From a virus (taxonomy: Duplodnaviria > Caudoviricetes), in the IMG/VR virus record IMGVR_UViG_3300009868_000002, positions 1 through 64,000 of that record: DNA of 64,000 nucleotides, one strand, 5' to 3'. This document shows, piece after piece, positions 12,874 through 32,875 of the stretch (position 1 is its first letter; the number at the start of each line of letters is the position of its first letter). A program made the translations under genes and the position numbers. The notes beneath the pieces were generated by a model that saw only the letters and a program-made list of their open reading frames with translations, ran no database searches and was not told the origin of the DNA.

Positions 12874-14469
12874 ATGCTAAGACGCAGATCAGCTCTTGAA
12901 AAAGTTGCTCGGAAGGATTGGGGAGGCAGCTATCTGGATAGCTTTACCCATGCGGAGCTCTTTCGCAGCTACGGGCCTACGTACTTTGGTATGATTGATG
13001 CCCAGCTTTTCTCTTCCGAGATTGACGGTAACATCATCAACAAGCCGTGGGTATGGCTGACGATGGCACAGGGTAATGTAATGAGTACAGAACCTGGCCA
13101 TACAGACTACTGCTGGCGCTTGAAGGAAGATGTCATCGCCGACGCACGTATCACCAAGGTTGACCCCAACCTGCCTACCTACCCCGGCAAGGGCAACCTG
13201 GAGTTTAAAATTTACCTGGACAGGGGATGGTTCCATGCTCCTGTACTGCTGAAAACCGACAGCCACGATGCACCACTGCTTCGCATCATCGGCCACCCTG
13301 TGCAAGTTTCTGCTACCGAATGGGAGTATGTTGTTGCACTGCAGGATGGCGACCCTACCAGCTGGCTGAACACCGACTACATCCAAATCGGGCGCAGGAT
13401 TATCGACGGAGGCACCAGCACTGCCGATGAGCTCAACATCGAATACGGCGGAGACTACTTCGCTAACGTATTTGAGCTGCAAAGCCAGATTGGCTACGTT
13501 GGCCGCAAAGTGGAAGTCACCGACAAATTTATCCGCCTGGAAATGGCCGCTAAGAGCAAGAACATGCCCTATAGCATCTCGGGTGGTGGTGGAACGTTTA
13601 CTGATGGTGCCGCTATCGGCGTAGGATACATCTACCAGCCGGGGCTGAAGGACAAGACTTCCAGCAAGGAAATCAAGCAAGGTAGCTTCATCACGATGGC
13701 GGAAGCACGCCTGGCTGAACGCCTGAATGAAGACAAAAACTTCATGATGGAGTTTGGACGTACGGAAGTTACCGTCAACCCGCAAACGGGACGCCCTATT
13801 AAGGTTGCTCCGGGGTGGCGCCAAATCCGCAAGGATGGGCACTACTATCCCCACAATGGTAGCCTTACGCTGTACGATATCTATGAGCGCCTGCAAGGTA
13901 TCTTCGTAACGCGCTATGGCGTTGGTGAACCTATCGTGCTGCTGCGCACCGGCAAGGGCGGATTGGAGCTCTTCTCCCGCATGGTAAACACGGAAGCAGG
14001 ACTGAACCCCTTCGTGCTGATGGACAGCTACTTTATCCAGCGCACCAACTCGGAAATCACGGGCAACGCCCTGAAGTATGGCGCACAATACACGGAAGTG
14101 CTGATGCCTAACGGTATTACGCTGAAGGTAATGTATGACCCCACCAAGGACAATCCGCGTTACTATCCCGAGAAAGTGCCCGGCACCAGCTACAGCTATG
14201 AAAGCTACACTTTCGACGTCATGGACCTCGGTGCAACAGATGCTGCTCCCGCCAACGCACGTACCAAGTCGAATATCTCGATGGTGTACGAAGAAGCTTA
14301 TGAGGAGTACTTCATGGTATCGAACGTCTACGACATCTATTCCGGCGCCAAGAAGGGCGGTGAGAATGTCGCCATGCTCGACAAGCAGGCAGGTATCTAC
14401 CGTGGTAGCTCCTGCGCACTGGCAGTATGGGATACTTCCCGCATCCTTTCGATGCCGTACATCGTGTAA
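12874..14469 (+). CDS. Major capsid protein (crAss-like)
   Basis: 531 aa, strong high-expression codon bias, TGRPIKVAPGWRQ and TGKGG motifs, position after scaffold. Confidence 0.9.
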   Translation: MLRRRSALEKVARKDWGGSYLDSFTHAELFRSYGPTYFGMIDAQLFSSEIDGNIINKPWVWLTMAQGNVMSTEPGHTDYCWRLKEDVIADARITKVDPNLPTYPGKGNLEFKIYLDRGWFHAPVLLKTDSHDAPLLRIIGHPVQVSATEWEYVVALQDGDPTSWLNTDYIQIGRRIIDGGTSTADELNIEYGGDYFANVFELQSQIGYVGRKVEVTDKFIRLEMAAKSKNMPYSISGGGGTFTDGAAIGVGYIYQPGLKDKTSSKEIKQGSFITMAEARLAERLNEDKNFMMEFGRTEVTVNPQTGRPIKVAPGWRQIRKDGHYYPHNGSLTLYDIYERLQGIFVTRYGVGEPIVLLRTGKGGLELFSRMVNTEAGLNPFVLMDSYFIQRTNSEITGNALKYGAQYTEVLMPNGITLKVMYDPTKDNPRYYPEKVPGTSYSYESYTFDVMDLGATDAAPANARTKSNISMVYEEAYEEYFMVSNVYDIYSGAKKGGENVAMLDKQAGIYRGSSCALAVWDTSRILSMPYIV

Positions 14470-16450: not shown

Positions 16451-17836
16451 ATGATTACTAACAAAGACCAGACCGCTGCCATGGAGGTTTTCCTCATTGG
16501 TACAGCGGATAGCGCTTTGCCGGTGTCGGGTGCCAACGTTGGCGCCAACAATGCCCTGGCTATCGCCGATGGGCAGCTTGCCGTCATTAGCGCTGACCAT
16601 AATGGTACTGTTGCTTTCGGCAACTTCCTTGCCACCGGTGACGACATCGATGCCGCCAACACCATTCGCGTCATCCAGGGTACGCCCTACTCCTCGCAGC
16701 TCAACCTCGTAAATCCGTTTAACGTCACTCACAAAAAGTACGTTGAGACGGGTAACATCAAGGCGACGAGCGTCCGGGGTGTTTCCACTTTCCTGCCGTC
16801 GTGGCCGTCCCACGCCATCCAGTACATTAACGCCGTTAGTGGGCAAGACGATGAAACCCGCTATACGATGAACGTCGAGCTGGAAGGTACTCGTACGGAC
16901 CTCGCTTATGGCATGAACCGTGACGTGACACGCGCTGTCTACGACTTGCCTGCATCGGGCTCTGTAAGCTTGCTGCTTCAGAACCTCGCTATGCAGCTGA
17001 ACCGCTCCAGCAAGATTATCGGACAAGCCAGTCCTACGCACTTTGCCGGTAACAAGCCCTTCGTGGTGCTTGGCGTCGACACTGCTGCTGGCTCCGGTAC
17101 CGTCATTGGTACTTTGGTTGTCGGTGATGTCGTGGACATCGCTACCTATGTGCTTCCTGATGGAAGCACGGAGACGTTCTCTATTACGATGACGGTGCCT
17201 CTGATTCAAGCATTGCACGAAGCTATCGGCAACGTCGCTGCTCTGAGCACGGATACTATCGTCGTGATGACGGCTGCCGCTACCAACGATGTTACCGGGT
17301 TGCTCGTTATCGGGCTGGATGAGGACTTGAACCTCGCCTTCGATAACATCAAAGAGGTGAAAACCCGCGTACGTACGGGCATTGGCGGAACGCTTACCTA
17401 CACGATTACCGAGGCATCTACTGCCTTTGAAGGGCGCAACTTGTACCGCCAGGACTACCTGAAGTATTTCGACAAGGCCGACTTGCAGATTTTCAACATG
17501 CAAAACCAGCCTATCTACGGCGAATACTTCATCCTGGTGCCCAACTACTTCGACGCTACAGTTGATGGTTATACGGTGACGATTATCGACTACTACGATA
17601 ACAACCAAACCATTAACGGACAGGGCGAACATCCCAAGCGTGCCTATATTCTGCTTCCTGCTGCATCAACGACGGCAGCAGTAGATGCAGATACCGGGTA
17701 CACCTGGGCGACTACCAGTGCTACGGCGGTTGCCAGCCTCAATGCCACCCTGGGCGCATGGCTGAGTGATGCCGACGACACTTACAACAACATCACGTAC
17801 AGGGGTAGCGCAACGAAGGCTGCTCCTTTTGTGTAA
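16451..17836 (+). CDS. Abundant structural protein (auxiliary capsid / decoration candidate)
   Basis: 461 aa, T/A/G-rich, capsid-like codon bias, followed by a hairpin. Confidence 0.6.
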   Translation: MITNKDQTAAMEVFLIGTADSALPVSGANVGANNALAIADGQLAVISADHNGTVAFGNFLATGDDIDAANTIRVIQGTPYSSQLNLVNPFNVTHKKYVETGNIKATSVRGVSTFLPSWPSHAIQYINAVSGQDDETRYTMNVELEGTRTDLAYGMNRDVTRAVYDLPASGSVSLLLQNLAMQLNRSSKIIGQASPTHFAGNKPFVVLGVDTAAGSGTVIGTLVVGDVVDIATYVLPDGSTETFSITMTVPLIQALHEAIGNVAALSTDTIVVMTAAATNDVTGLLVIGLDEDLNLAFDNIKEVKTRVRTGIGGTLTYTITEASTAFEGRNLYRQDYLKYFDKADLQIFNMQNQPIYGEYFILVPNYFDATVDGYTVTIIDYYDNNQTINGQGEHPKRAYILLPAASTTAAVDADTGYTWATTSATAVASLNATLGAWLSDADDTYNNITYRGSATKAAPFV

Positions 17837-17841: not shown

Positions 17842-17875
17842 CAGGGGGGTACCACCATAGCGGTGGTGCCCCCTG
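17842..17875 (+). terminator. GC-rich stem-loop (terminator or attenuator)
   Basis: caggggggtaccacc-atagc-ggtggtgccccctg; weak U-tract. Confidence 0.55.
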
Positions 17876-17913
17876 ATTCTAATGTCATTGAAAGCATAGA
17901 AATAAGTACTCCT

Positions 17914-18300
17914 ATGGACAATTTGTGGAAATGGTTTGCCGAGCAATGGGCGACTTTAATAACACAACATTTTGAGGGGTTTATGATTCTGGGTACATCG
18001 CTGCTGGGTAGTTTAATAGGACTCCGCCGAGAAGAAAAAGTGGGGTTTTGGCTTGGTTGCTTAGTTGTAGTAACAAGCGCAACGACGTCGATACTCATTG
18101 CTCTTTTGCTGGCACACTATTTTGGGCTCCCCGATGTAGCAGTGTACGCTCTATGCTACTTCCTGGGTACCGTGGGTAATAGGCTAACGCTGAGTTTTAT
18201 CAAGCTGGTAAGTCTCTTTTTAGCGAATCCCCTCGGTACCCTGAAGTATATTGTCAAGGTATTGGCAGAAGTAAGTAAAATCAAAAAAGGTGGCGAATAG
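17914..18300 (+). CDS. Holin-like membrane protein
   Basis: About three TM segments and a basic C-terminus; ATG at 17914. Confidence 0.6.
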   Translation: MDNLWKWFAEQWATLITQHFEGFMILGTSLLGSLIGLRREEKVGFWLGCLVVVTSATTSILIALLLAHYFGLPDVAVYALCYFLGTVGNRLTLSFIKLVSLFLANPLGTLKYIVKVLAEVSKIKKGGE

Positions 18301-18847
18301 ACTTCCAAGAGCATTTATAAAAACCAACGTACCCTTCTCCAAGGCATCGGCTAATGATAATGTGCTGGCTAATAACCCAGGGCATTATCGTCGTGATATA
18401 CTGCTGGCTACTATTGGGGAGCTGGTATATATCTATGAAGATAACAGCGTGCAAATCGCTGCTACCAACCTTGGAGTGACGGCGGCACGTGAGGAGGGCA
18501 GGGTGACGATTACGGTACCCCGTGACGTTTACTTGTTTGCTGTACGTGTAGCAGGTACTACTGCAGACGTCGACGATGATATGAATATGCGGGTGCAGTT
18601 TAACTACACTTATTCGGGCCCTGATAACGCCTATCTGGAAGGTATGGAACCTGTAGGGCTAACAGTATGGGACTATAGTCTTATTAACAATGCCAGCGAG
18701 ACACAGAGTGAAACGTACTTTGCCGCTAAAGTCGAGAAGATATGGAACTGCACTATCGCCGATACAGGCGTAGATAGCGTAATAATCTTGGAGGTAAAGG
18801 TTGAGGATATGAATTACGACAACTGGAAAATAAACGTAGGCTTCTAA
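18290..18847 (+). CDS. Hypothetical beta-rich (structural?) protein
   Basis: 185-aa ORF overlapping both neighbours. Confidence 0.55.
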   Translation: MANRLPRAFIKTNVPFSKASANDNVLANNPGHYRRDILLATIGELVYIYEDNSVQIAATNLGVTAAREEGRVTITVPRDVYLFAVRVAGTTADVDDDMNMRVQFNYTYSGPDNAYLEGMEPVGLTVWDYSLINNASETQSETYFAAKVEKIWNCTIADTGVDSVIILEVKVEDMNYDNWKINVGF

Positions 18848-21800
18848 TGAAACGACTTATCATGTTCATATTGGTACTGCTGCCCTTCTTACTTCCTGCA
18901 CAGGAAGCTATCGAGATATTTGGCGGCAGGTTTACTACAACGGCGAGTACTTCCCTGGGAGGCAGCTCCATTCAAGTTTCGGGGGTATTCAAGCACTCCC
19001 GCAATACGTGGAAGGCCGATAGCATACAGGTGGGAGACTGGCTTATTGACTGTGACTGCAACAGTTTCGTTGTAGCATCAATTACCAGCACGCTGGATAA
19101 TAGCATCATTATGACAGTGACGGCGCAGAATGCCGGTGTCACTAAAGTAAAAGCATGCACGGGAGGTATTATACGTCCCTTCGATGACTATATACGATTC
19201 CCCAATGACTTGCCGACACCTATTATCGACTGTATCCTCAACTATAACTATAACGTCGTTCCTGCTCCATTCGAGAGCATTTACGTGTCCAATGATACGA
19301 TGTACTTCATCAATACTGAAGGAGACACGGTATCTGTGTTTAATGAAATTAATATAAGCAACCTGTCAGATGTAGATACTACAGGGATAGAGGCGGGAGA
19401 CATCTTGCAATGGAATGGCACCACGTGGATAGTGGTAAATGCACCGACGTATATCAGCAGTGACAGTATGGCGACACAGCTGGTGTATGCACCAGCACAC
19501 GGCTTGACAGATAGCATTGCATACTATGGATATATTCCTGTAAAGTCTGACTTTACCAGGGCTAATGCTACTAGCGTAGATAGCGCTTTTATCGCATACG
19601 CTATTGATGCCCCACATGTAGACAGCCTGCTACTGATGTTTTCAGGATTCCTGAATTATGTAGTATGGCATGGCAAGGAAATAAACGTGCAGTACTACTT
19701 GCAGGATGATGGGACGGAAGATACTACGCCAGGAACGGTGAGCATCCCTACAGCAATAGCCAGTGACTCGCTAACGCTGCTGCTTCGGGAGGTAGGTAGT
19801 GATATCGCCGGAAGGCTGCGTAGGGTGGCGGTGCCTTCGCCTATGATTACAGCGTTTGGCGGCGACCCCAGGATACCTACAGATAGCGTCATGCAAGCTG
19901 CTATTGAAGGGGTTTACTTACCGGCAGGGATAGCACAGCCAGGGACGATATTTACGTTAAGCTATTCCGGGCAAACCGATAACCCCACTTACATAGAAAC
20001 TTCCCCCAATTCTAATCCACTAACACCAAGTCATGCATGGCTATGGGATGGTGCTTATGCCACCCGCATTACCACTATTGCGACATCGGTGGATTTACAG
20101 GATAGCCTCTTTGGTGGCTTGGGGATTGTACCTCTTATTCCTATTGACGACATCGCCGTGAGTTTGCCGCCTACCGATGAAGAAGTTGCTGTATGGCTGG
20201 ATACCAACTACACGGTAAATAATGTCAGGCTAACAAATGGCACTAATCTTTACTACATAGGCGCTGGTACACGCCAAAGTCCTGACTATATCTGGCAGGT
20301 TGTCGACGATGTAAGCTGGAGTGGTGCTGATACACAATGGGAGAGGATAATCAAGCGTATTCAGTCACCGGGGGTAGCTACAGACACCAGTGGATATAAT
20401 AGGAACTTTTACGTAGCCACTGATTCGTTGTATATAGGAGATGATAATGATACGCTATCTGTTGCGCTATCATTGATAGACGTGGATTTGGCTGCTAACG
20501 GCCTCACGATGTCGGGGGATAGTGTTATTCTTGGTGGCACTTTAAATAAGACTACGTCCTTAGCAACGCTTGGCTATCAGTTAGGCTTATCAGGTGCCCG
20601 TACCACGAATAATCCTGTGTTCTCTGTCACTAATACTGGCTCTGGAGAGGCTGTTTATGCAAGCTCTTCTACAGGTATTGCTGTAAATTCTATAGGTGTA
20701 TATGGTGTAAAAGGGAATGGAAGCGGCTATGGGCTATGGGGAGTATCATCTGGTGGTACTGCAGGATATTTTACCAGCACTTCTGGATATGGGATAGTGG
20801 CAAGCTCTTCGTCGGGACCAGGGGTAGACATACAAACTACTACAGGATTACCTCTTGGCGTATCTCAGCAGCCTGCTACCACTAATACGGTGGCTACGCT
20901 AGTGTATTTGAACAGAAACACCTCCGGGACAGGAGCTCCAGGTATAGGAGGAAGTATCAAGTACTTCAATATGCTGAGGACATTAGGCAGAGAGTCGGCA
21001 AGTCTTGAGGCTGTAATTACCGACAGCACCTATGCTACCTATTCATCCCGGTTCGGGATACATACGGCATATAACGGGACGGTGTCCAGGAAGTTTAATA
21101 TTGCCGGAACTGGCCAGCTCACCCTCGACGGTTACGCCGCCAATGCCCTGAACAACCCCGACTCCGTTCTCTACGTTACGGGCGTGGATGCGACGGGGGA
21201 TATGTACACGATAAGCGTGGATAGCCTAGCCGGCGGTGGCACGGTAAATAATAATTATTACTCCATAACAAAATCCCAAGCCGACAGCCTTGTGACCGGT
21301 AGCCTCGTGCAGCCGGGTGCTGTTTACCGCATTAGCGATTGCAGCCCTGACCATTACGGGGGAACGGACTTATTTTTGATGGGTACGACCGTCGACGCTT
21401 TCTCGCAGGACGGGGCCGGGGTATTCTACACTCCGAAGTACGACCAGGCAAAAACCGGGTTTGGTATCTGGCAGGAGGATAGCACCTATATCGCAGGAGA
21501 TACCGTCTTTTGGGGTGGTTATGCGTGGATTAATCAGACAGGTGATGTAGGGAGCGCTGACGATATATTGAATCTCGGAGCAACTGACTGGACCGCAATA
21601 CCGTTCGATTCGATAACCTATAATGTATGGCTTGACGAGGTTAGTTACGATTACGCTAACGACTGGATTTCACGCCGTTACAACGCACAGGCGGGTATTG
21701 AGGTAAGTATGCCCTATGGATTGGATTTCTTGTGGAATGGCGCCGAAGGATGGTTCCCGTCTATTTCTGTAATGCAATGGGGTAATGGAAGTACCGGAAA

Positions 21801-23262
21801 TTTAGTAGGGGTATTTTCCCAAAAAATAACGGATTCGTATAACGAGAATATCAATTTTCGGGGGTCGTATCAGTTCAACCTCATCTTCGATAATGGGTCG
21901 TATCAGTCCTACTTCACCTTTAATAATGGGTCGGGTCAGTCCAACCTCACCTTCGATAATGGGTCGTATCAGTCCAACCTCACCTTCGATAATGAGTCGT
22001 ATCAGACCCAGCTCACCTTCGATAATGGGTCGTATCAGTCCTACTTCACCTTTAATAATGGGTCGGGTCAGTCCGACCTCACCTTTGATAATGGGTCGGG
22101 TCAGACCTACTTCACCTTCAATAACGGTGCGGGTCAGTTCAACCTCACCTTCGATAATAGTGCGGGTCAGTCCAACCTCACTGCAACAACAGATGGGATG
22201 CAAAGTACCCTACATTATATTTCCTATCAGAGCGACCGCACCGGCGACACACTGGCCGTGACAGAGGAAGGTATTTATATTAATGCCAATGCGACAGTAC
22301 AATACCCAAATATTACAGAGGATAATGCCCCTGAATATGTCGCGGTATTTGATGCCGATTTAGGACTGCACTATATCGCGCCGGATAGCCTGGCCGGGGG
22401 CGGCGCTGCGGACGGGAACGGGATGTTCGACGCGGCAAACGAAGGGGATACGATTAGGGTTTCCGAGGCACTGGTTGAGTCCACCACCTTTAGGATACAG
22501 CACGAGGGGTATTTTCGGATTAGGAGCAATGGCGGGAATGCAAGTTTTTCCGCCGAAATGGGCGGATACGATAATCAAATAGCCGGATTTTCGGCGCTCG
22601 TAGATAGCACGGTATCCGCCGAGTCGTCTATGTCGGCCTATGGAAAAAATAACGGGAATTTTTCAGCAATCCGCGTTGATACAATTTCTACAAGAATTAA
22701 CGGAAACGGTGTCAGCGCATACAGTTATCACTTTCCTATTCACCAACCGGCAGTATCCCCCGGCGATACATCGGTAATGGTGTTTTTGCACGATAGCACG
22801 TCTGTTTTTATTGACAAGGCGCTTTTTGGCGGCGGCGCAGACACCGACGATCAAACCCTTTCCACTTCCCGCGACACGGTGACAATCAGCGACGGCAACT
22901 CCGTGCGAACGCCGGGCAACGGATTCCTGCGCGATTCGGTCACGGGCGCAACACTGACGGTGGACCTGAAGTACTACAATAACGCGGTGGTGGTCCTGAA
23001 AATGGAGAGCGCAACGTCTGTGACGCTGACCATCAACAACCCCTGGGGGAACACGGCAGTCGACGCGACCTACCCCACTTTCGAGGGACAGACCGGGGTG
23101 TACACTTTCCATTTCTTAGGTACGTCGGGAACGGATAACGTCACATGGCCCGCCACCTTCCTTGACATGGGAGGGACGGCACTGGGAACAGACGCGATAA
23201 CGGCAGGGACGTGTTATACCTGTTATTACGACCCCGTAGGGGCAAAATATTACTGCAAATGA
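18847..23262 (+). CDS. Large mosaic tail-fibre/adhesin-like protein with N-terminal signal peptide
   Basis: MKRLIMFILVLLPFLLPA|Q; fibre motif ISNLSDVD...GDILQWNGTTW; G/S/T-rich beta-repeats; C-terminal VTWPATF module. Confidence 0.75.
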   Translation: MKRLIMFILVLLPFLLPAQEAIEIFGGRFTTTASTSLGGSSIQVSGVFKHSRNTWKADSIQVGDWLIDCDCNSFVVASITSTLDNSIIMTVTAQNAGVTKVKACTGGIIRPFDDYIRFPNDLPTPIIDCILNYNYNVVPAPFESIYVSNDTMYFINTEGDTVSVFNEINISNLSDVDTTGIEAGDILQWNGTTWIVVNAPTYISSDSMATQLVYAPAHGLTDSIAYYGYIPVKSDFTRANATSVDSAFIAYAIDAPHVDSLLLMFSGFLNYVVWHGKEINVQYYLQDDGTEDTTPGTVSIPTAIASDSLTLLLREVGSDIAGRLRRVAVPSPMITAFGGDPRIPTDSVMQAAIEGVYLPAGIAQPGTIFTLSYSGQTDNPTYIETSPNSNPLTPSHAWLWDGAYATRITTIATSVDLQDSLFGGLGIVPLIPIDDIAVSLPPTDEEVAVWLDTNYTVNNVRLTNGTNLYYIGAGTRQSPDYIWQVVDDVSWSGADTQWERIIKRIQSPGVATDTSGYNRNFYVATDSLYIGDDNDTLSVALSLIDVDLAANGLTMSGDSVILGGTLNKTTSLATLGYQLGLSGARTTNNPVFSVTNTGSGEAVYASSSTGIAVNSIGVYGVKGNGSGYGLWGVSSGGTAGYFTSTSGYGIVASSSSGPGVDIQTTTGLPLGVSQQPATTNTVATLVYLNRNTSGTGAPGIGGSIKYFNMLRTLGRESASLEAVITDSTYATYSSRFGIHTAYNGTVSRKFNIAGTGQLTLDGYAANALNNPDSVLYVTGVDATGDMYTISVDSLAGGGTVNNNYYSITKSQADSLVTGSLVQPGAVYRISDCSPDHYGGTDLFLMGTTVDAFSQDGAGVFYTPKYDQAKTGFGIWQEDSTYIAGDTVFWGGYAWINQTGDVGSADDILNLGATDWTAIPFDSITYNVWLDEVSYDYANDWISRRYNAQAGIEVSMPYGLDFLWNGAEGWFPSISVMQWGNGSTGNLVGVFSQKITDSYNENINFRGSYQFNLIFDNGSYQSYFTFNNGSGQSNLTFDNGSYQSNLTFDNESYQTQLTFDNGSYQSYFTFNNGSGQSDLTFDNGSGQTYFTFNNGAGQFNLTFDNSAGQSNLTATTDGMQSTLHYISYQSDRTGDTLAVTEEGIYINANATVQYPNITEDNAPEYVAVFDADLGLHYIAPDSLAGGGAADGNGMFDAANEGDTIRVSEALVESTTFRIQHEGYFRIRSNGGNASFSAEMGGYDNQIAGFSALVDSTVSAESSMSAYGKNNGNFSAIRVDTISTRINGNGVSAYSYHFPIHQPAVSPGDTSVMVFLHDSTSVFIDKALFGGGADTDDQTLSTSRDTVTISDGNSVRTPGNGFLRDSVTGATLTVDLKYYNNAVVVLKMESATSVTLTINNPWGNTAVDATYPTFEGQTGVYTFHFLGTSGTDNVTWPATFLDMGGTALGTDAITAGTCYTCYYDPVGAKYYCK
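21862..22182 (+). repeat. Coding tandem repeat, 33-bp unit, nine full copies plus one partial
   Basis: Units such as gggtcgtatcagtccaacctcaccttcgataat (GSYQSNLTFDN). Confidence 0.9.
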
Positions 23263-24041
23263 TGAAACGGGCAGCAATTATATTATCTCTCATCCTGGGG
23301 CATCTGTGGCCCTCACAGGCGCAAGTTTCGATGCTGGTCGGGCCGGATAGCCTTAGTTACATCACCTCGCCCCTCGATTTAGGAGACAGCCTTTCATTTT
23401 GGCTGCTTGGAGAATATACTGAAGAAGGAAGCGGCGACCCGGCAGAAAATAATGATAGAGTTTCTTCGTGGCTTGATCAGTCAGGGAATAGCAATCATTT
23501 TACACAAGCTACTGCGGACTTAAAACCTACTTATTTAACGAATCAAATTAATGGCTACCCGGTAGTTTACTTTCAATATGCCAGAAGACTAACAAATATA
23601 TCTCTTAGTCCAAGCATTTACACCGGATGTATTTTTATGGTAGTATATCTAAATCAAGACACCACGACAAACAGAGATTTTATTGAGCGTGGCAATAGAC
23701 CTAGAATAGCGACAAATTCCTCGGAACAGGTATTTTATTTCTCTACGTCGGGAACCAGGACGGCTTCGGGATATGGCAGTATTAACGGAAAATGGGTTCT
23801 TATCGAGGGATGGAACGAAACTTCCACTACAATGGATATAAATATTGATGGGAGTAACTATGTAAATGACGGGGGTAAAACAGCTACAGAATATTGGAAT
23901 ACCACGTCATCAAATATTGAGATTGGGGACGATAATTCATCTACTTTTTATTGCGCCGAGGTGATTGGAGTGTGTTCCCCGTCCTCTGCTCAAGTCCAAG
24001 CCATTCGCAATTACCTCAACAAAAAATACGACTTGTATTAA
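23259..24041 (+). CDS. Secreted LamG/ConA-like jelly-roll protein
   Basis: Signal peptide ...WPSQA|Q; VSSWLDQSGNSNH.TQ, INGYPVVYF, IRNYLNKKY. Confidence 0.7.
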   Translation: MMKRAAIILSLILGHLWPSQAQVSMLVGPDSLSYITSPLDLGDSLSFWLLGEYTEEGSGDPAENNDRVSSWLDQSGNSNHFTQATADLKPTYLTNQINGYPVVYFQYARRLTNISLSPSIYTGCIFMVVYLNQDTTTNRDFIERGNRPRIATNSSEQVFYFSTSGTRTASGYGSINGKWVLIEGWNETSTTMDINIDGSNYVNDGGKTATEYWNTTSSNIEIGDDNSSTFYCAEVIGVCSPSSAQVQAIRNYLNKKYDLY

Positions 24042-24051: not shown

Positions 24052-24750
24052 ATGAAAAAAATAACTGTAAAAAAAATCCAATCAGGTAACGGTTATATTG
24101 CAAGTGCCGACGGACTTGGTGCTGTAAAGTATGGCGACACAAAGAAAGAAGCTAAAAGCAAATTTAAAGTCTTCCTAAAAAAAATAGGATTCCTTTTCCT
24201 CATCCTGCCTGCAATCGTTCAGGGGCAAAACTACCTTTTCGAGATTACCCCGACGGCGGGGGAATTTCGGGTATTAATCACCGATGACACGCGGGAGGCA
24301 TACCCCAGGGACATTACTGACTTCGGGCTGGTGGACACGGCAACCCTGCAACTGCTCGCACACCAACGAATCGAACAGGCGAAGAGCAGGCAGTCCAGTT
24401 TGTTGGCGCAATCCTTCCTTGCCGCCCTGAACGCGGAGCAAACCGCATCAGGGGTTGGGGCGGTGGTGCCGATAGATTATGCGGCCTTCGCTGCGGCGCA
24501 ATGGGCAACGGCTTACGACGGGAATTACCAATACCAAGTACGGGGAACGGCAACCAATTTCGGGGTGTACATCGACGGTGCGGAGCTGCGCAGAACGTCG
24601 AACAACAACCTCCTGGCAACGATTACCCCGCAAAGCGCGAATTGGTTCACCGCAACGAATGGCGGTGTTCCGGTGCAACTGTATCAGGCTGGCAATATTT
24701 GGGTGGGACGAAACGCGAATAACCAAATAGTAACGCTTAAGCGATTATAG
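24052..24750 (+). CDS. Protein with HicB-like N-terminal segment, internal signal/TM segment and passenger domain
   Basis: GYIASADGLGAVKYGDTKKEAK then KKIGFLFLILPAIVQG|Q. Confidence 0.55.
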   Translation: MKKITVKKIQSGNGYIASADGLGAVKYGDTKKEAKSKFKVFLKKIGFLFLILPAIVQGQNYLFEITPTAGEFRVLITDDTREAYPRDITDFGLVDTATLQLLAHQRIEQAKSRQSSLLAQSFLAALNAEQTASGVGAVVPIDYAAFAAAQWATAYDGNYQYQVRGTATNFGVYIDGAELRRTSNNNLLATITPQSANWFTATNGGVPVQLYQAGNIWVGRNANNQIVTLKRL

Positions 24751-24751: not shown

Positions 24752-26131
24752 ATGCCTGAAAGGCCAACACCATATACGCAGCACGTTAAGGTAAATGTCG
24801 CTAACCAGACGGAGCCTGTAGAAGTGCTCGTTACTGGGCAGCCAGTAGCTATATCGGTGGAACAGCCTGTATCAGTAGAAGTAGGCCAGCCTGTTGCCGT
24901 TACTATTACGGAGCCGCTTTCTATAACAGAAAGTGCTCCTGTACTTTCAGATATCAACTTTGATGCTTTTGGCAGGCTACGAGTATCTAATCCGACATCA
25001 TTATTCGATGCACAGCTTACTTACAATCTCTCTCCGCTGCTCTATGAAGCTATAACTGCAGAATCTGGGGCAGCAGTAGCACACGATGCTACTAATCGTA
25101 TGGCGCTGATGACACTGGCAAGTGCTCCTAATGGCGGCAAAGCATATATGCAGACATACGAATACTTTCGGTACCAGCCAGGGAAAGGTAATCTGTGCTT
25201 TATTACCTTCAACATGAAGGGAGGTGTAGCTAACGTACAGAAGTTTGCAGGGTATAGTGATGGCGCTAATGGTATAGAATTCCTGATGAATGGCACTACT
25301 CCTTCTATAAGGATACTATCCGATACAGGAGTAGGTGATGTTGTTGTAGCACAGGAAAGTTGGAATCTGGATACTATGGATGGCAATGGGCCCAGTGGTA
25401 TCCTGCTGGACTTTACCAAAACACAGATACTTGCCTTAGACTTTCAAGCTCTCTATGTAGGAAGGGTAAGGATAGGATTTGATGTCAGCGGTATGCTATA
25501 TTACGTGCATGAATTCAATCACGCCAACGATGAAATAGCGCCCTACATTCAAAGTGCCAACCTACCGATACGCTGTGGCATGACGTGCACAGATACAGCA
25601 AGTACGACGATGAACTTCATCTGCTGCTCTGTTATTAGTGAGGGAGGGCAGGAAGATAACCTGGGATTTCTGTTTTCAGCAGAAGGCACTGCAACAGCAG
25701 GAAATGGCGCTGATACCCATATCTTATCCATTCAGCCTAAGACGACGTTCAATAGCATTACCAACCGTATCAAGATGGTATTGGAGAGTGTCGACATCAT
25801 CGTTACAGGAAACAGCCCCGTACTATGGAAGCTGTGCCTGGGGCAGGCGCTGACGTCTATTAGTCTAACGGATGTCAATGCCACTTACTCCGGCATGCAG
25901 ACAGTGGCGGGAACGCTGTCGAGCACTCCCGCTATCATTGTAGCGCAGGGATACGTAGGAGCCACTGCAACAACAAAGCAGGCTATCAGCAAGCCTACAG
26001 CGGTAAAATATCCAATCACTCTCGATGCCGCCGGTGCAGCAAGGGATTTGGGAAGGATTACAGTGCTGGTGCAGGGAATTGGAGGGAACTCGGCGACGCG
26101 CTGTGTGCTAAACTGGAAAGAAATACGTTAA
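24752..26131 (+). CDS. Virion structural protein (fibre/spike, lectin-like)
   Basis: N-terminal QPV repeats, DAFGRLRVS motif, FRYQPGK, C-terminal LNWKE. Confidence 0.65.
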   Translation: MPERPTPYTQHVKVNVANQTEPVEVLVTGQPVAISVEQPVSVEVGQPVAVTITEPLSITESAPVLSDINFDAFGRLRVSNPTSLFDAQLTYNLSPLLYEAITAESGAAVAHDATNRMALMTLASAPNGGKAYMQTYEYFRYQPGKGNLCFITFNMKGGVANVQKFAGYSDGANGIEFLMNGTTPSIRILSDTGVGDVVVAQESWNLDTMDGNGPSGILLDFTKTQILALDFQALYVGRVRIGFDVSGMLYYVHEFNHANDEIAPYIQSANLPIRCGMTCTDTASTTMNFICCSVISEGGQEDNLGFLFSAEGTATAGNGADTHILSIQPKTTFNSITNRIKMVLESVDIIVTGNSPVLWKLCLGQALTSISLTDVNATYSGMQTVAGTLSSTPAIIVAQGYVGATATTKQAISKPTAVKYPITLDAAGAARDLGRITVLVQGIGGNSATRCVLNWKEIR

Positions 26132-26800: not shown

Positions 26801-27285
26801 TGAAAAGGCTTCAATCGCTTAACTTCTCGGCTAGCGTAGCAACGATTTTGCTTATGGCCGTAAAGCTTATCTTCGACTTCTTCAATGTCCAGGGTGTAGA
26901 TACTACGCTGGACCCACAGCAGGTAGCCGATGGCATCCTCTCCAAAAACTGGGAGTTTATCAGCCAAGTCGCTATCCCTGGTGTATGGGTGATGATTCTA
27001 AAGCTCGTCACCAACATCAAGAACGGTACCTTTAGCTGGAGTGCTTTGTGGTCGTCACCTAACTTTCTGACGGCAGCTATTACGCTGGTTATCGTTATCC
27101 TCAACGGTGTAGGCTTCGCTATCGCCGAAACGGCGGCACCGGAAATCGCCGAAGCTATCGCATCGGGGAGCTTTGCCAGCATCATCGTCGCCATCCTGAT
27201 TAACATCGCCAACCCACTGTGGCACTTTATTCAGGACTGGCTCGCCAAGATTAAGGAAAACAAAGCTAAAACCGTAAACGGATGA
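26800..27285 (+). CDS. Four-TM membrane protein with internal duplication (holin-like)
   Basis: LQSLNFSASVATILL and LWSSPNFLTAAITLVI halves. Confidence 0.6.
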   Translation: MKRLQSLNFSASVATILLMAVKLIFDFFNVQGVDTTLDPQQVADGILSKNWEFISQVAIPGVWVMILKLVTNIKNGTFSWSALWSSPNFLTAAITLVIVILNGVGFAIAETAAPEIAEAIASGSFASIIVAILINIANPLWHFIQDWLAKIKENKAKTVNG

Positions 27286-27758
27286 CACTTACTCCTTCAG
27301 CATGTGACTACATGATTATAGCATCCGATGTATTGGATGACTATATAACCACTCCTGCTGACTATACCAGCGTAACGGTAAGCGGTACCTTTAATCAGGG
27401 TACCGCTTTCAGCTATGAATTGGGTACGCTGGATACTACAGGAGAGGTGCGCACGTATTCGGGGGAGGAGAGAATCTACCCCGAGTTTTATGAGCTGGCT
27501 ACATTTGCCAATGGCGTATACAGCGTTACTATCGTAGCGGTAAAAGAAGATGATACTACCGTTACGGAGCAGGGCTGTGTCTTCATGGACTGCGACGTTA
27601 AGTGCGATGTGGAGACTATCGAGCAGATGGTACTGCATTATGCACTTACCAATGCCAATGGATGTACGTGCGATTGCGCCAAGATGTATACGGTATATGA
27701 AGCGCTATTAAGTAAGATTTCAACGGGAACAAGCAATGAGTCAGATTGCGGATGCTAA
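27282..27758 (+). CDS. Cys-rich structural protein
   Basis: NGVYSV, CVFMDCDVKC, CTCDC, C-terminal DCGC. Confidence 0.55.
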   Translation: MTLTPSACDYMIIASDVLDDYITTPADYTSVTVSGTFNQGTAFSYELGTLDTTGEVRTYSGEERIYPEFYELATFANGVYSVTIVAVKEDDTTVTEQGCVFMDCDVKCDVETIEQMVLHYALTNANGCTCDCAKMYTVYEALLSKISTGTSNESDCGC

Positions 27759-28026
27759 CTGTGTAATATTGGAGCTTGCCTATCTGGAGGCACTGGATAT
27801 ACTTTATGCTATGAAGTGTAACAGCACTGAAGATTTACGCAAGCTGGTGCTGTGGCACTATCGTGATGCAGGAGACTGTGCAACTATCGATGAAGAGTGC
27901 TGCATCGCCAACATACTACATAAATACAGCTATACCGCTGAAGACTGTAGTTCGACGGCAAATTGCGTTTCCAACATAACGATTGAACCCGACTATTGTG
28001 GCGACATAACTATAGAGATGCTATGA
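27736..28026 (+). CDS. Small Cys-rich protein
   Basis: 96 aa with 8 Cys. Confidence 0.55.
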   Translation: MSQIADANCVILELAYLEALDILYAMKCNSTEDLRKLVLWHYRDAGDCATIDEECCIANILHKYSYTAEDCSSTANCVSNITIEPDYCGDITIEML

Positions 28027-30161
28027 TAACTGTCAGAAAGACTTTCAACATACAGGTGGAGAATACTCCATTTACTTTTACGCTAACACCTGGCTCGGAG
28101 TGCATTACGGTAGCTACCGTATCGGAGTCAGCTACACAGGTGGTAGTCGACGTAACTTTTCTTAATGAAGAGTGCGCCGCCAATGCATCCTTTACGGCTA
28201 CTGTCGTTGACAACGAGGGATGTATCCTTACTACGGCAGTAGATATACCATCACCCTGTGATACTTTTACCGTCACGGATATTAGCGTAGACAGCAATCT
28301 TACTTTTTCGGTGACAGCCTCTGGTGGTGTGGCACCCTATACATATCAATGGCAGGTTGATACGCTGGTATTCAATGTTAATGAAACTACTGGTGCTAGC
28401 CTGCCTATCAAGGAGCTGCTAAGTACGCCATCAAGTACCGTCGTGTACGTTACGGTAGCGGATAGCGCCGGATGTGAGACTACCAAAGAGCTCAACTATA
28501 GTTTCTGCAAGCCCACGATAGATGATGTTACGGTGAGCATGATTGCCAAATACGCTGATGGCGCCAGTCCTTCGGCGTGCCCTGGAGCATGCTCTATAGG
28601 TACACAGACACTGGTACGTACGACGTCGCCTTGTGCTGCCGCCGTTGACTATAGTAGTACCGTCTTCAATATCGATGACCCCAACATTTGCATTTCTGTC
28701 AGTGATGAAGGCATCGTTACGGTATACTCTAAATACACGGAAGCAGATACATTAAGCTTTACATATTACGTTATCGATGCCAACGGCTTACAGTCGGACC
28801 CTGCTACCATAACGGTAAACATTCCTGACTGTGAAGTAGCGGCATTACCCAAGTATGTGTCTGTTGCAGGGGAGATACAGCGTGTTTCTGCCAGCGCACA
28901 GACGGGCGATGTACTTACTTTCGATGTCGTCGGCAGGGCAGTAAGCAGCTCTGACTTGGATTGGGATACTTTCGAGTTTCTCAATACTCCCAGTATGGGT
29001 ACGGTAGCGCTGGCAGTACCTGGTGTTATCGAATATACCATTACAGCGGCGATGCCGGGGACGGGTGCTGACCCCATCATTTGGCATATCGCCAATGACG
29101 AAGGTGCCGATAGCGGCTCTGTTGCCGACGTCGTCGTCTACGATTTGCTTCCTGCACCCGTTACTGTTACGGACCACGTATGTGTAGAATGTGATGTACA
29201 ATCTGCTGACACTGATATTCTTGCTAACGATACAGGGGATATAGACCCCTCTACGGTACAGTTTCTGAGCATCGACCCTGACATACAGATTACGGGAAGC
29301 AATGGAGTGTACAAGTTTAAGTCAGGATACAGCGCCAGTCTCGCTAATACTATTACCTATACGGTAGACAACCACGATGGTGTCACCAGCAACGTAGGTG
29401 GAGTAGTAGTGCACAGCGTATGTGCCGGAGTGCTTAGCCAGTCAGTCATTGATGCTACCTGCACCAGGGAGTTTTACATAGGGGATTACCTGACGAGCCA
29501 CAGCTCATTTCTCTATGCCATTACAGAGCCGGATGGAGCTAACCCGGATAGCTATACAGGGCAAGGCGGCGTCATCGATACTTCCTTCCCCTGTACCTAT
29601 GGATGTTTCGACTTTACATCCATCAGCGGTGGAGATTATGTATTTGAAATAGAGGCTACTAACTCGGTGCCCTGTGTCAATACACAGACTATCTCCTTTA
29701 CGGTACATATCGAAGATGTTCCTGCTCCCGGCAATGATGACTGTAGCGGTGCATACAATATGCCGTATAGCAATAATATGTATCTTAGCGGCAGCAACAT
29801 CGACCAGTGCCCGCGCATTGCAGCGCCTACAGATTCCGGTGCTGGTACTCCGGCAACCTGGGTGACGCCAATGGCAGGAGACTTGTGGTATACTTTCACA
29901 GTAAATGATGCCACAAACTTGACACCCTACATCTACGTCGTAGGAAGTACGATGGCTAATCCGCAAATAGCGCTATATGATGGTAGTTGTGGAAGTCTCA
30001 ACCTGCTGGCTGATGACGCTGTTGTAGGCACTACCGTGCAGTTGGACGGCACTGACTATACGACGCTGGTTGATGCTACCCAATACTGGATTAGGGTAAG
30101 CTGCCCCGAGGGCGATGAAGGAGCCTTCCGGGTGATAGTATCGAAAACTGCGATAGTATGA
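28023..30161 (+). CDS. Ig-like / cadherin-like repeat protein (capsid or fibre decoration, adhesin)
   Basis: ASGGVAPYTYQW, VTVADSAGC, ILANDTG, ITYTVDN, PGNDDC...DLWYTF...YWIRV; ATG at 28023. Confidence 0.7.
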   Translation: MITVRKTFNIQVENTPFTFTLTPGSECITVATVSESATQVVVDVTFLNEECAANASFTATVVDNEGCILTTAVDIPSPCDTFTVTDISVDSNLTFSVTASGGVAPYTYQWQVDTLVFNVNETTGASLPIKELLSTPSSTVVYVTVADSAGCETTKELNYSFCKPTIDDVTVSMIAKYADGASPSACPGACSIGTQTLVRTTSPCAAAVDYSSTVFNIDDPNICISVSDEGIVTVYSKYTEADTLSFTYYVIDANGLQSDPATITVNIPDCEVAALPKYVSVAGEIQRVSASAQTGDVLTFDVVGRAVSSSDLDWDTFEFLNTPSMGTVALAVPGVIEYTITAAMPGTGADPIIWHIANDEGADSGSVADVVVYDLLPAPVTVTDHVCVECDVQSADTDILANDTGDIDPSTVQFLSIDPDIQITGSNGVYKFKSGYSASLANTITYTVDNHDGVTSNVGGVVVHSVCAGVLSQSVIDATCTREFYIGDYLTSHSSFLYAITEPDGANPDSYTGQGGVIDTSFPCTYGCFDFTSISGGDYVFEIEATNSVPCVNTQTISFTVHIEDVPAPGNDDCSGAYNMPYSNNMYLSGSNIDQCPRIAAPTDSGAGTPATWVTPMAGDLWYTFTVNDATNLTPYIYVVGSTMANPQIALYDGSCGSLNLLADDAVVGTTVQLDGTDYTTLVDATQYWIRVSCPEGDEGAFRVIVSKTAIV

Positions 30162-30943
30162 CATTATATGAAACGTTTTCTCTGCTTCATGAAAAGTTTA
30201 GAAATATCAGATTCGAGCCCCAGCAGCATATCTATACGGACTTATGCACCGGCAAGCATCTGGTAAGTACGACAACCGCAATAGAGCGGTTCAAGAAGCC
30301 GTTTGACAAAGAGTTTTGGCTACGTGAGAAAGCAGCGGAAGCTGGCATCACCGTAGCGGAGTTGGAAGAGCAGTGGCGACGCAAGAAGGTGCGCGGACAG
30401 ATGATAGGGATACGATACCACGACTATATGGAGCGCACCTTCAAGCACATGGCACAGCAGCAGAAGCCCATCCCTGCCGTCGAGAACTACTTGCTGGAAT
30501 ATAATGATGTACCCCTATTGACGGAGTACATCATCGGCAATGAAGTCTTGGGTGGCATGGTAGACCACGTTGCGCTAAGGGGTGATAGCCTGGTGCTGAA
30601 AGACTGGAAGAGCAACAAGAAGTTTTACACCAACTCGCGCTACAGGTTGATAAAGGGATTGGAGCATCTTCCTGCCAGTGAGTTCAACGTCTATGCACTA
30701 CAAACCAGCATCTACCGATATATGCTGGAGCCCCTGCCTATCGAGAGACAGGAGTGCGTATGGTTCTTTCCACCGCGTAAGGAATTCTTGTCGGACAGCG
30801 CCTGGAATGATAAAGGGTATATCGTATTTGTTATGCCCTACTTAAGGGATGAAGCAAAGCATATCATAGAAACGGTAAGAAATGACGATAGCGCAACATA
30901 TTTCGGCGATACGCAACCTGATGAATCGCTTCTCGGAGACTGA
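30158..30943 (+). CDS. PD-(D/E)xK nuclease
   Basis: GMVDHV, LKDWKS, YALQTSIY. Confidence 0.8.
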   Translation: MTLYETFSLLHEKFRNIRFEPQQHIYTDLCTGKHLVSTTTAIERFKKPFDKEFWLREKAAEAGITVAELEEQWRRKKVRGQMIGIRYHDYMERTFKHMAQQQKPIPAVENYLLEYNDVPLLTEYIIGNEVLGGMVDHVALRGDSLVLKDWKSNKKFYTNSRYRLIKGLEHLPASEFNVYALQTSIYRYMLEPLPIERQECVWFFPPRKEFLSDSAWNDKGYIVFVMPYLRDEAKHIIETVRNDDSATYFGDTQPDESLLGD

Positions 30944-31553
30944 AACACCTTTCTCCGATGAGGCCCTATACCACTATTTCAATGCCGCTGCTTTAAGGCT
31001 GGTAAAGCAGAAGATGGAGAGAAACTTCAAAACCAGCGATTGGAACACCAAGCTATTCTGCATCAGCTTGGTAGCTGATACTATCCATAATTGTGAATGC
31101 CTGCCCAGCTGCACGGTGCTCAAAAGCACTACCGCCATTCCTCGTCCGCTAACTAGCCGTAACAGGGACTTGCTGAAGGTACACACGCTGGACCATCGGG
31201 ATATAGCCTACATGAATCCCAGCACTGCCTATACTTATCAGTACGATGAAGTCAGGGAGAACAGGCTCAGCTACAGCATCATCGATGACCATATCGTATT
31301 GTGGAATGCCGACACCACCAATCTGGTGCCGCGTGCTATTTTGGTAAGTGGCTACTTCGAAGATATCAGCCAGTGGAGTGGCATTGAAGCTTGTGATGAT
31401 AACGGTGAAGGCACGGGAGAAGTATGCTTCGATATCTTCACTTCCGACTATCCCCTGGATAACGACTTGGTAGACCCTGCCTATAGAATGGTACTGGAGA
31501 TATTGCGCGTACCTATTTCGATACCTGACGACAGAGTAAATGAGCAGAGGTAA
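30882..31553 (+). CDS. Tail ring protein (crAss-like)
   Basis: C...LKS...IP and C.D...DYP.D motifs; gene order. Confidence 0.6.
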   Translation: MTIAQHISAIRNLMNRFSETETPFSDEALYHYFNAAALRLVKQKMERNFKTSDWNTKLFCISLVADTIHNCECLPSCTVLKSTTAIPRPLTSRNRDLLKVHTLDHRDIAYMNPSTAYTYQYDEVRENRLSYSIIDDHIVLWNADTTNLVPRAILVSGYFEDISQWSGIEACDDNGEGTGEVCFDIFTSDYPLDNDLVDPAYRMVLEILRVPISIPDDRVNEQR

Positions 31554-32118
31554 ATATAGCAAACCTATCGAAGAGCGTGCCGCTGAAAAGGGGCGCTTTA
31601 ACTATGGCAACTACATCACGCTGGATGCCCTGTATCGTCAATATCCCCATCGCAGGCGTGTCCCGGGAGCAGGCATCACAGCGCCCCCCTATATCAAAGA
31701 TAAGGATGTCAGCACCCATGAATATGCTTTGGACTTCAGGGAGTGGAAGGTAGTCGTGAAGTGCTATTTTAAGTATTTGCTCCGTTATTTAATTAAGGGC
31801 TACACTTATAAAATTCCTTGGGGCTGTGGTTTACTAACGCTGGTAAAAGTACGGCGTGCCCGGCGTGACCAGGCGCTAAATCAAAAGCGCTATAAGGAGA
31901 CTGGCCAGAAGGGATACATAAAGGGATACGACTACAACCTGGATGGTTATAGCCTGTTGCTAAACTGGAACAGGAGCCTGAAGACGGGAGCACAGTTTCC
32001 CTTTAAGTCGTATTATAAGGTAGAGATTATAGAGAATGTCTTCAGAGGCATCGTAAAAGCTATGCGGCTAGACAGGAGTATGTTATACAGATTACAAAAC
32101 GCAAAGGGCGATGAATAA
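31540..32118 (+). CDS. IHF/HU-like basic protein
   Basis: IKGYTYKIPWGCGLLTLVK; crAss-like tail modules carry IHF-like genes. Confidence 0.55.
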   Translation: MSRGKYSKPIEERAAEKGRFNYGNYITLDALYRQYPHRRRVPGAGITAPPYIKDKDVSTHEYALDFREWKVVVKCYFKYLLRYLIKGYTYKIPWGCGLLTLVKVRRARRDQALNQKRYKETGQKGYIKGYDYNLDGYSLLLNWNRSLKTGAQFPFKSYYKVEIIENVFRGIVKAMRLDRSMLYRLQNAKGDE

Positions 32119-32875
32119 ATATGTGCCGTTAGATGCAGTGCTAAACTATGTTCCTGAAGTGGTAAAGCAGGATGTCGATACCGTACAGATGCTGTCATGG
32201 GCTAACCAGGCGTATAGGGATTTCAACCTACCCAGCCAGCTGGAATTGAAGGTAGTGCTGATAGACGTAGTGAGTCATAAAGCCAAGCTGCCCAGTGATG
32301 TAAGGCTGATTGTCGACGTGCTATATTCACAGGTACAGAATGACGGCACCGTCACGGCACTGCAGGACTTTGGAGAATATAGAGTGATAGTATACCAGGA
32401 GATATTTTTTGGTAGCACCTACTACCTTAATGGTAAACCCCTGAAGTACAAGGGGCAGAACAGGGCTGCGTTAATCGACGAGAGCCTCTACTGTCGTACT
32501 TGCGAGATAGGATTTACGCTGGATAAGACGATGACGTGCATGACAATAGACTTGGCGGATGGAGAGGTGACGCTGGTATACTATGCCAGCGTGAAGGACG
32601 AGAATGGAAACGTCATCGTCCCCGATGACCCTGCCCTAATGGAAGGTTTAAGCTGGCATATCCAGAGCAGGTACTGGCTGAATAAGAGCTACACCCATGA
32701 AGAGATGGCGTACAAGTTTCACACCGACGCCATGGTAAAGGCAAAGACGATGCTGGACAAATTCAGGGGCAAGGAGATACTCCGTGCTATAGAGCCTGAC
32801 AGGCATAAGAATTTCGTCTTCAGACGCAACAGATACTCCTACGAATTTTCGCGCAACACAGGACATCGCACATGA
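32111..32875 (+). CDS. Tail tubular / ring protein
   Basis: KAKLPSD, YYASVKDENGNVIVPD; precedes the muzzle gene. Confidence 0.65.
   Translation: MNKYVPLDAVLNYVPEVVKQDVDTVQMLSWANQAYRDFNLPSQLELKVVLIDVVSHKAKLPSDVRLIVDVLYSQVQNDGTVTALQDFGEYRVIVYQEIFFGSTYYLNGKPLKYKGQNRAALIDESLYCRTCEIGFTLDKTMTCMTIDLADGEVTLVYYASVKDENGNVIVPDDPALMEGLSWHIQSRYWLNKSYTHEEMAYKFHTDAMVKAKTMLDKFRGKEILRAIEPDRHKNFVFRRNRYSYEFSRNTGHRT

Follow-up and report, generated by a model that had tools for sequence, protein, structure and literature searches.

A fibre-like protein of a crAss-like phage with a Sec leader and a leader-linked excess of Bacteroidota O-glycosylation sequons

The stretch of DNA analysed here (hereafter the window, 64,000 nucleotides) covers positions 1 to 64,000 of the IMG/VR virus record IMGVR_UViG_3300009868_000002 and is part of a phage genome of 103,555 bp contained in one contig. 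Its gene at 18847..23262 encodes a fibre-like protein of 1471 residues (P0001), which starts with a predicted Sec signal peptide and is strongly enriched in D[ST][AILVMT], the sequon of the general O-glycosylation system of Bacteroidota. Judged from the anatomy of the leader and from sequon statistics, the product is very probably exported and O-glycosylated by the host outside the cytoplasm. An exported, host-glycosylated fibre-like protein would be a phage-encoded substrate of the host glycosylation system and a departure from the known way of making fibres. Tailed-phage assembly is taken to be wholly cytoplasmic, and the known cases of virion glycosylation, in mycobacteriophages and chloroviruses, depend on phage-encoded cytoplasmic enzymes. 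We found no description in the literature of exported or host-glycosylated fibres of Bacteroidota phages. The gene and its leader are as follows.

18847..23262, plus strand: whole gene, a putative exported, sequon-rich, fibre-like glycan-binding protein of 1471 residues (from sequence reading and sequon statistics)
18847..18900, plus strand: predicted Sec signal peptide for signal peptidase I, residues 1-18, with the n-region MKR, a 13-residue h-region, cleavage after Ala18 and Gln19 at +1 (read from sequence)

Export signal and sequon excess

The translation begins MKRLIMFILVLLPFLLPA|QEA. As read from the sequence, the leader is tripartite and consists of MKR, 13 hydrophobic residues and PA, followed by Gln. 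The start of the protein is fixed by a TAATG overlap, in which its ATG shares an A with the TAA stop of the upstream open reading frame (ORF), and the one other early Met, residue 6, still lies ahead of the hydrophobic stretch. The start that an earlier note on this DNA had placed upstream of the hydrophobic segment is thus upheld, and the segment is conserved in the relatives that share the family core or the N-terminal domain. No further segment of the protein exceeds the 19-residue Kyte-Doolittle threshold.

The leader is a conserved feature of the family. Gln19 is invariant in 43 of 43 aligned sequences, and [AGSTC]Q occurs at positions 13-32 in each of the 63 leader-bearing relatives. The leader is present in all 42 proteins that share the core, except for P0006, whose record starts inside the leader, and in every protein that shares the N-terminal domain, whatever comes after it. 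It stands before at least five unrelated mature N-terminal types, and is therefore kept as a unit of its own. In Bacteroidota, signal peptidase I substrates have Gln directly after the leader (the Q-rule; PMC5837995, PMC10653852), and the Gln at +1 of the present protein points to a Bacteroidota host.

The earlier note had counted by hand about 30 sequons among about 36 D-S/T dipeptides, and an exact count gives 30 of 36. Composition shuffles of the protein contain 8.6 +/- 2.7 sequons and 0 of 5000 reach 30 (z ~7.8), so that the observed number is 3.5 times the chance level. The excess requires Asp at position 1, Ser or Thr at position 2 and a hydrophobic residue at position 3. The third residue is hydrophobic in 30 of the 36 D-S/T dipeptides, as compared to a background of 0.396 (binomial p = 9e-8), and Ser or Thr follows Asp in 36 of 108 cases, as compared to an expected 0.202 (p = 1e-3). 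When the first residue is varied in X[ST][AILVMT], enrichment is found for X = D alone (z 7.4), with the other 19 residues falling within -1.5 to 0.7. When the second is varied in D-x-[AILVMT], the enriched residues are Ser (z 7.8), Thr (z 2.9) and, on 3 occurrences, Trp (z 3.2), and no other residue exceeds z 2. The Ser:Thr ratio at position 2 is 20:10, and position 3 is most often L (9), V (7), T (6) or I (5); both preferences agree with the measured site preference in PMC12871550. In the core alignment, the sequon at residue 259 is conserved in 43 of 43 sequences and that at residue 346 in 35 of 43. The sequons also turn over, as 28 of 43 core columns are occupied in just one to three sequences.

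Within the family, the sequon excess goes with the leader. An exhaustive search with residues 1-980 returned 929 relatives, of which the best 150 were compared, 63 of them leader-bearing and 87 leaderless. The leader-bearing relatives contain 756 sequons versus 320 expected (ratio 2.36, median z 3.4). The leaderless homologues, a comparison that the earlier note had called for, show no enrichment, with 264 sequons versus 248 expected (ratio 1.06, median z 0.1), and the sequon ratios of the two groups differ at p = 3e-18 (Mann-Whitney). Within the domain at residues 801-989, which occurs in both groups, the density is 1.73 sequons per 100 residues in leader-bearing and 0.64 in leaderless proteins (p = 0.001; 41 leaderless proteins compared). 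Because the density in this shared domain differs with the leader, the fold alone does not explain the excess.

The same partition is found within the phage itself. Over the whole phage, 48 of 60 D-S/T dipeptides are sequons (12.5 expected) in the 12 ORFs that encode a leader or an N-terminal membrane segment, versus 95 of 229 (77.6 expected) in the other 119 ORFs (Fisher p = 9e-8, or 2e-3 without the 1471-residue protein). The leaderless neighbours, for which the earlier note had given about three, three and two sequons, contain exactly 3 (16451..17836), 3 (27996..30161) and 2 (24752..26131), none of them above chance.

In this phage and in four cultured Bacteroidota phages, sequon enrichment is limited to membrane or exported proteins. 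The fibre protein gp097 of phi14:2, verified by tandem mass spectrometry (MS/MS) and encoded in the same slot as the present gene, has no leader and only 3 sequons among 16 D-S/T, versus 4 of 5 in the membrane protein gp087 of that phage (L001 19230-19808). The virion fibre proteins gp22-26 of crAss001, of which gp22 has been placed by cryo-electron microscopy (PMC10172136), have neither a leader nor a sequon excess, while 4 of 4 D-S/T are sequons in its membrane lysis protein gp27 (L004 25093-25695). Likewise, ORF172 of Flavobacterium phage MaF61, which shares the mid domain, lacks both the leader and the excess, and the membrane protein ORF169 (L008 9972-10697) has 4 of 5. In these three phages the enriched protein is only a membrane protein near the lysis genes. 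In Cellulophaga phage phi18:3, gp094 (L011 10901-11182) has 3 of 3. These observations suggest that the lysis-cassette membrane proteins of crAss001, phi14:2, MaF61 and phi18:3 may be host-glycosylated. Even if the 1471-residue protein is not on the particle, a leader-dependent sequon excess would also be a simple sequence signature by which, in any Bacteroidota phage, envelope-exposed proteins can be told from cytoplasmic ones.

The known substrates of general O-glycosylation in Bacteroidota (PMC12871550, PMC8729774, PMC8550257) likewise combine a Sec leader with a three-residue sequon in which Asp is obligatory at position 1. As in the present protein, Ser is preferred over Thr, L, V, T and I are the commonest third residues, and enrichment is confined to non-cytoplasmic proteins. 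However, these substrates are host proteins, whereas the present one is virus-encoded, lies in a module of particle genes and has 30 sites; the review of the system (PMC12871550) makes no mention of phages. According to that review, the system fills almost all motif sites of non-cytoplasmic proteins, accepts engineered motifs, and is active across species and on foreign proteins (PMC12871550). Given this near-full occupancy, a protein exported with 30 sequons should be heavily glycosylated.

Gene position, cassette and domain architecture

By its virion genes, the window phage is a distant member of the Crassvirales. The major capsid protein (12874..14469) matches the Pfam model Crass_capsid at 2e-31, the terminase and the portal match their crAss001 and phi14:2 counterparts in phmmer searches, and the Pfam crAss ring models identify tail ring 2 (30882..31553) and ring 1 (32111..32875). 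The sole sequencing run that contains the gene is an activated-sludge metagenome, which is probably the source sample, and no RNA sequencing run containing it is listed.

The gene occupies a fibre position within the virion module. The genes for the capsid, ring 3/4 and auxiliary capsid proteins precede it, and on its 3' side lie those for a Cys-rich hub-like pair (27282..28026), for an Ig-repeat protein and for rings 2 and 1, together with a muzzle-sized gene. Relatives hold this slot in four further crAss-like contigs (L003, L005, L009 and L010), the L002 homologue sits between the capsid and muzzle genes, and more relatives are found among the structural genes of two different phage types (L006, L007). 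The gp097 gene of phi14:2 is likewise placed between the capsid/ring and the tail ring/muzzle genes, whereas the gene order of crAss001 differs. Both gp097 and crAss001 gp22-26 (PMC10172136) resemble the present protein in being large and beta-rich with glycan-binding or enzyme tips, but they differ from it in having no leader, no sequon excess and no detectable sequence similarity; the crAss001 structural atlas (PMC10172136) mentions neither signal peptides nor glycosylation.

The surrounding cassette consists of the coupled 185-residue protein, the fibre-like gene and then one to three leader-bearing proteins. Its members in the window, together with the gene directly before it, are the following.

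17863..18300, plus strand: holin-like membrane protein directly 5' of the cassette, conserved in L003
18290..18847, plus strand: leaderless 185-residue protein, translationally coupled to the fibre gene and the conserved first cassette member in L003, L009 and L010 (homologues in the same place)
23259..24041, plus strand: putative exported protein of 260 residues, leader ending SQA|Q, 3 of 3 D-S/T being sequons (match to a PHROG annotated 'virion structural protein')
24052..24750, plus strand: 232-residue protein with an internal hydrophobic segment at residues ~40-58, followed by G|Q (sequence reading)

The L009 homologue of the 260-residue protein carries a Laminin_G_3 domain. At 24052-24750, the annotated start puts 40 hydrophilic residues ahead of a leader-like segment ending VQG|Q; the product would be either a membrane-anchored type II protein or one with a mis-set start before a third leader. 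Co-variation of the 185-residue protein with the FGGRF-type N-terminus described below was considered and rejected, as its homologue precedes another N-terminal type in L003.

The mature fibre-like protein is a mosaic of the following parts.

18901..19341, plus strand: mature N-terminal domain, residues 19-165, starting Q-x(3-4)-FGGRF, with four Cys (69, 71, 104, 129), shared with nine proteins
19360..19428, plus strand: NLSDVD...LQWNGTTW motif, residues 172-194, with NLSDVD at 172 and LQWNGTTW at 187 (sequence reading)
19399..20391, plus strand: conserved family core, residues ~185-515 (AlphaFold2 predicted local distance difference test, pLDDT, >90 over residues ~208-508)
19453-19815, plus strand: putative beta-tulip, the first part of the core, residues ~203-323, like phage capsid decoration/cement proteins (predicted structure, VIA-align)
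20464..21216, plus strand: Gly/Ser/Thr-rich stretch, residues 540-790, possibly beta-helical (low-confidence model)
21247..21813, plus strand: domain at residues 801-989, found in hundreds of mostly leaderless fibre-like proteins (pLDDT >90)
21427-21621, plus strand: CBM5/12-like carbohydrate-binding module (CBM), residues ~861-925, within the domain at 801-989 (structure match)
21856..22182, plus strand: ~9-10 tandem 11-residue repeats, consensus ~NLTFDNGSYQS, residues ~1004-1112 (sequence reading)
22765..23262, plus strand: C-terminal tip domain, residues ~1307-1471, with VTWPATF at residue 1432 and three Cys at its extreme C-terminus, also present in P0005, P0113 and P0152

The phage fibre motifs named in the earlier note, NLSDVD, LQWNGTTW and VTWPATF, are all found at the positions given above. 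The N-terminal domain is common to P0005, P0019, P0038, P0042, P0070, P0086, P0113, P0125 and P0030, and is one of several interchangeable N-terminal types of the family. Structurally it gives weak beta-barrel matches (Z ~4-4.7). Its relatives keep the four Cys in most cases, two of them invariantly, together with a sequon at residue 58, and the retention of the Cys suggests disulfide formation in this domain.

The beta-tulip of the core aligns over ~100-114 residues with VIA-align Z scores of 8.2-5.3, a range that is common for the tool, and the ten best matches are all decoration proteins; the Atlas lead for this part is Phage_cement_2 (score 0.85). The decoration proteins of Adjutor, Patience, HFTV1, BB1, Pam3 and XM1 superpose on residues ~203-323 with Z 8.2-5.9 and a root-mean-square deviation (rmsd) of 2.9-4.4 A over 96-114 residues. 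They have no sequence match to the present protein, in which the fold is one domain inside a putative exported chain of 1471 residues. The rest of the core after the beta-tulip gave no structural match.

Residues 540-790 match tailspike and pectate-lyase beta-helices at Z ~4, in a model with pLDDT <50 that is not reliable. For the relatives of the domain at residues 801-989, a phage origin is indicated by their N-termini and by one cultured phage. The CBM5/12-like module within this domain superposes on the chitin-binding CBMs of chitinases and deacetylases with Z 4.4-5.5 and rmsd 1.7-2.6 A over 43-53 residues at 16-28% identity, and has no Pfam match even at E = 5. The 11-residue repeat block is devoid of sequons because Asp there precedes Asn. 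In relatives, the distal parts are replaced with SASA esterase, BNR or arabinofuranosidase domains, and a search with the C-terminal 372 residues yielded one further relative only.

The whole protein falls into no family in Pfam, PHROGs or NCBIfam, and Pfam searches with five fragments at E up to 5 gave nothing usable. A tblastn search against 50,697 phage records found only MaF61 ORF172, covering residues 743-1065. A profile of 43 relatives had no match among PDB sequences, and neither structural model had a Foldseek match in the PDB at E <= 0.001. Matches in BFVD to predicted fibre-like proteins are partial, with TM scores of ~0.2. When the structural proteins of crAss001 and phi14:2 were compared with the window phage by phmmer, only the terminase, the portal, ring 1 and phi14:2 gp084 matched, and no fibre. 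The fibre label is thus a provisional one that draws on gene position, the mosaic build and the shared domains.

Site of action of the exported protein

The earlier note had proposed that the phage routes a fibre or adhesin to the periplasm for host O-glycosylation. The export and glycosylation parts of this proposal are supported by the sequence statistics described above, while its surface-adhesin variant lacks a known outer-membrane route. As for the place of action, we tentatively favor a late, fibre-like, carbohydrate-binding host-recognition protein that would mature outside the cytoplasm and join the particle at lysis. In this scheme, the Sec system would export the precursor, signal peptidase I would cut after Ala18, and Gln19 would be cyclised to pyroglutamate, as Bacteroidota do. 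In the periplasm, the host general O-glycosylation system would load many of the 30 sequons with the glycan of the species, and the four Cys of the N-terminal domain as well as the C-terminal Cys may then form disulfides. The glycosylated fibre and the neighbouring exported lectin-like protein would meet the cytoplasm-built particle only after the holin has opened the inner membrane. Docking could proceed via the conserved mature N-terminus or via the decoration-protein-like beta-tulip, and the released virion would carry an appendage coated in host glycan.

In favor of a particle appendage are the slot, the coupling to the virion operon, a mosaicism like that of receptor-binding proteins, the decoration-like beta-tulip and the structural proteins of phi18:3. 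The last are gp085-087 (L011 2892-8584, NC_021794), whose leaders end S|Q or A|Q and which are annotated as structural from virion MS/MS. They resemble the present protein in being Bacteroidota phage proteins with such Sec leaders, in adjoining lysis genes and in coming from virion preparations. However, they belong to a podovirus of another family and are sequon-poor, and the record is silent on their leaders.

A broader form of the favored scheme, in which Bacteroidota phages are finished in two compartments, with heads and tails built in the cytoplasm and Sec-exported, pyroglutamate-capped, disulfide-bonded, glycan-coated fibres added after holin opening, is conceivable but doubtful. If exported and glycosylated fibres are real, Bacteroidota phages, among them relatives of the most abundant gut viruses, would rely on the secretion and glycosylation machinery of the host to make their host-recognition gear, and cytoplasmic expression in E. 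coli would misrepresent their receptor-binding proteins. Were the protein to sit on the particle, virions would carry host-type glycans, which would matter for stability, for protease resistance, for attachment to mucus or flocs and for how grazers or the immune system recognise them. The particle route, if it holds, would amount to a new mode of tailed-phage construction.

Several points weigh against this picture. The leader call was made from anatomy and conservation, without a signal-peptide predictor. The presence of the glycosylation system in the host is suggested only by the phylum-level host range of the Crassvirales and by the Q-rule. No sequence match to any verified fibre was found in the Pfam, PHROG, NCBIfam, PDB and cultured-phage comparisons. 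The same phage encodes leaderless fibre candidates (24752..26131 and 27996..30161), so the particle need not depend on the 1471-residue protein. The phi18:3 proteins gp085-087 have no match to the target family and are not homologous to it, and they are sequon-depleted, with 3 sequons among 15 D-S/T versus ~9.9 expected, the opposite of the target family; their MS/MS status is taken from the record annotation. Envelope proteins that co-purify with phage can also be detected by mass spectrometry of such preparations. Finally, no mechanism is known for the addition of a periplasmic protein to a tailed-phage particle.

It is plausible, though short of probable, that after export and glycosylation the protein stays off the particle and acts free in the periplasm or after lysis. 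Late in infection it could bind or modify nascent surface polysaccharide or glycoprotein receptors in the periplasm, which would spare the progeny loss on debris and block superinfection; after lysis, it could prepare cells nearby, as a stable and soluble adhesin or depolymerase with a shield of glycans. The evidence for export and glycosylation serves such a free role equally well. The holin-like gene lies directly 5', in crAss001 and phi14:2 the lysis genes are scattered among the fibre genes, the leaderless fibre candidates are in the same module, relatives carry carbohydrate-active enzyme domains, and a route of assembly from the periplasm is not known. There is also a precedent within the phylum, as Q-rule Sec substrates that act outside particles have been proposed for Porphyromonas gingivalis prophages (PMC10367356). 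Like the present protein, they combine a leader with Gln at +1, and the study already states that phages of the phylum can use the host secretion rule. They are, however, function-unassigned and are read as host-envelope modifiers, whereas the present protein is a 1471-residue mosaic fibre-like protein in a crAss-like virion operon; that study (PMC10367356) does not mention glycosylation. A free role is harder to reconcile with a gene that is translationally coupled inside the virion operon of a lytic-looking phage and uses 4% of its genome, with a family mosaicism of N-terminal anchor and C-terminal tip that is typical of particle-borne receptor-binding proteins, and with phi18:3, which shows that leader-bearing proteins can be recovered from virions.

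Display on the infected cell is improbable. In this alternative, the protein would be an adhesin or receptor decoy on the outer face of the outer membrane or on vesicles, altering the binding of the cell to surfaces or to other phages. Its predicted export, its many sequons and its putative carbohydrate-binding modules would suit such a function. Moreover, the mosaic adhesive trimer (MAT) fibres of Bdellovibrio bacteriovorus, which are leader-bearing, phage-fibre-like trimers on a Gram-negative surface, show that folding of phage-like fibres is possible once Sec has exported them from a Gram-negative cytoplasm (PMC10769870). They share with the present protein a leader, a conserved beta-rich N-terminal domain, a long mosaic fibre and variable glycan-binding tips. 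On the other hand, they are proteins of a cellular predator, many of them end in an S74 chaperone domain, and no O-glycosylation sequon story attaches to them. Peptidase_S74 was not found in the present protein in a Pfam scan, and the likeness to MAT fibres is one of architecture only, with no homology shown. Neither the target nor its 42 relatives match the Por_Secre_tail or type B models for the C-terminal domain (CTD) of type IX secretion system substrates, although divergent CTDs are possible, and the target has no lipobox, with no Cys before residue 69. Since neither of these features was found, the surface variant is left without a known outer-membrane route.

An ordinary cytoplasmic fibre, whose hydrophobic N-terminus is no working signal and whose sequon excess is a habit of beta-rich fibres, is highly unlikely: all characterised tailed-phage fibres fold in the cytoplasm and the family-wide sequon at residue 259 could be structural, but the excess is absent from the leaderless relatives, even inside the same domain, and from the beta-rich leaderless proteins of the same phage, it recurs in small proteins with a leader or membrane segment that are unrelated to the family, both in this phage and in four others, and the leader with its Gln at +1 is kept before at least five unrelated types of N-terminal domain.

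Other genes of the window and its relatives

Small leader or membrane proteins are encoded at 1640-2077 (CSA|Q), where 4 of 4 D-S/T are sequons (z 5.7), at 2786-3118 (YS|Q), with 2 of 2, and on the minus strand at 62402-62788 (IA|Q), with 1 of 2. The protein at 4566-5174 has an N-terminal anchor and a Cys-rich juxtamembrane stretch and is possibly spanin-like; 6 of its 7 D-S/T are sequons (z 6.1). In a leaderless PD-(D/E)XK-like protein at 30158-30943, the count is 3 of 4 (z 3.4), small numbers that are probably due to chance.

The Cys-rich pair downstream of the fibre slot consists of two small proteins, at 27282-27758 and 27736-28026, with 9 and 8 Cys, respectively. The pair is kept beside the Ig-repeat protein in L003, L005, L009 and L010. 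It resembles the disulfide-linked tail-hub pair of crAss001 by size and order alone, with no sequence match shown.

The leaderless fibre candidate at 24752-26131 is a virion structural protein of 459 residues (PHROG 1645, 8e-71). Among cultured phages, its closest relatives come from T4-like cyanophages and Puniceispirillum phage HMO-2011 (~34% identity) rather than from phages of Bacteroidota. In L002, a family-2 glycosyltransferase gene (15304-16137) lies two genes downstream of the exported fibre cassette.

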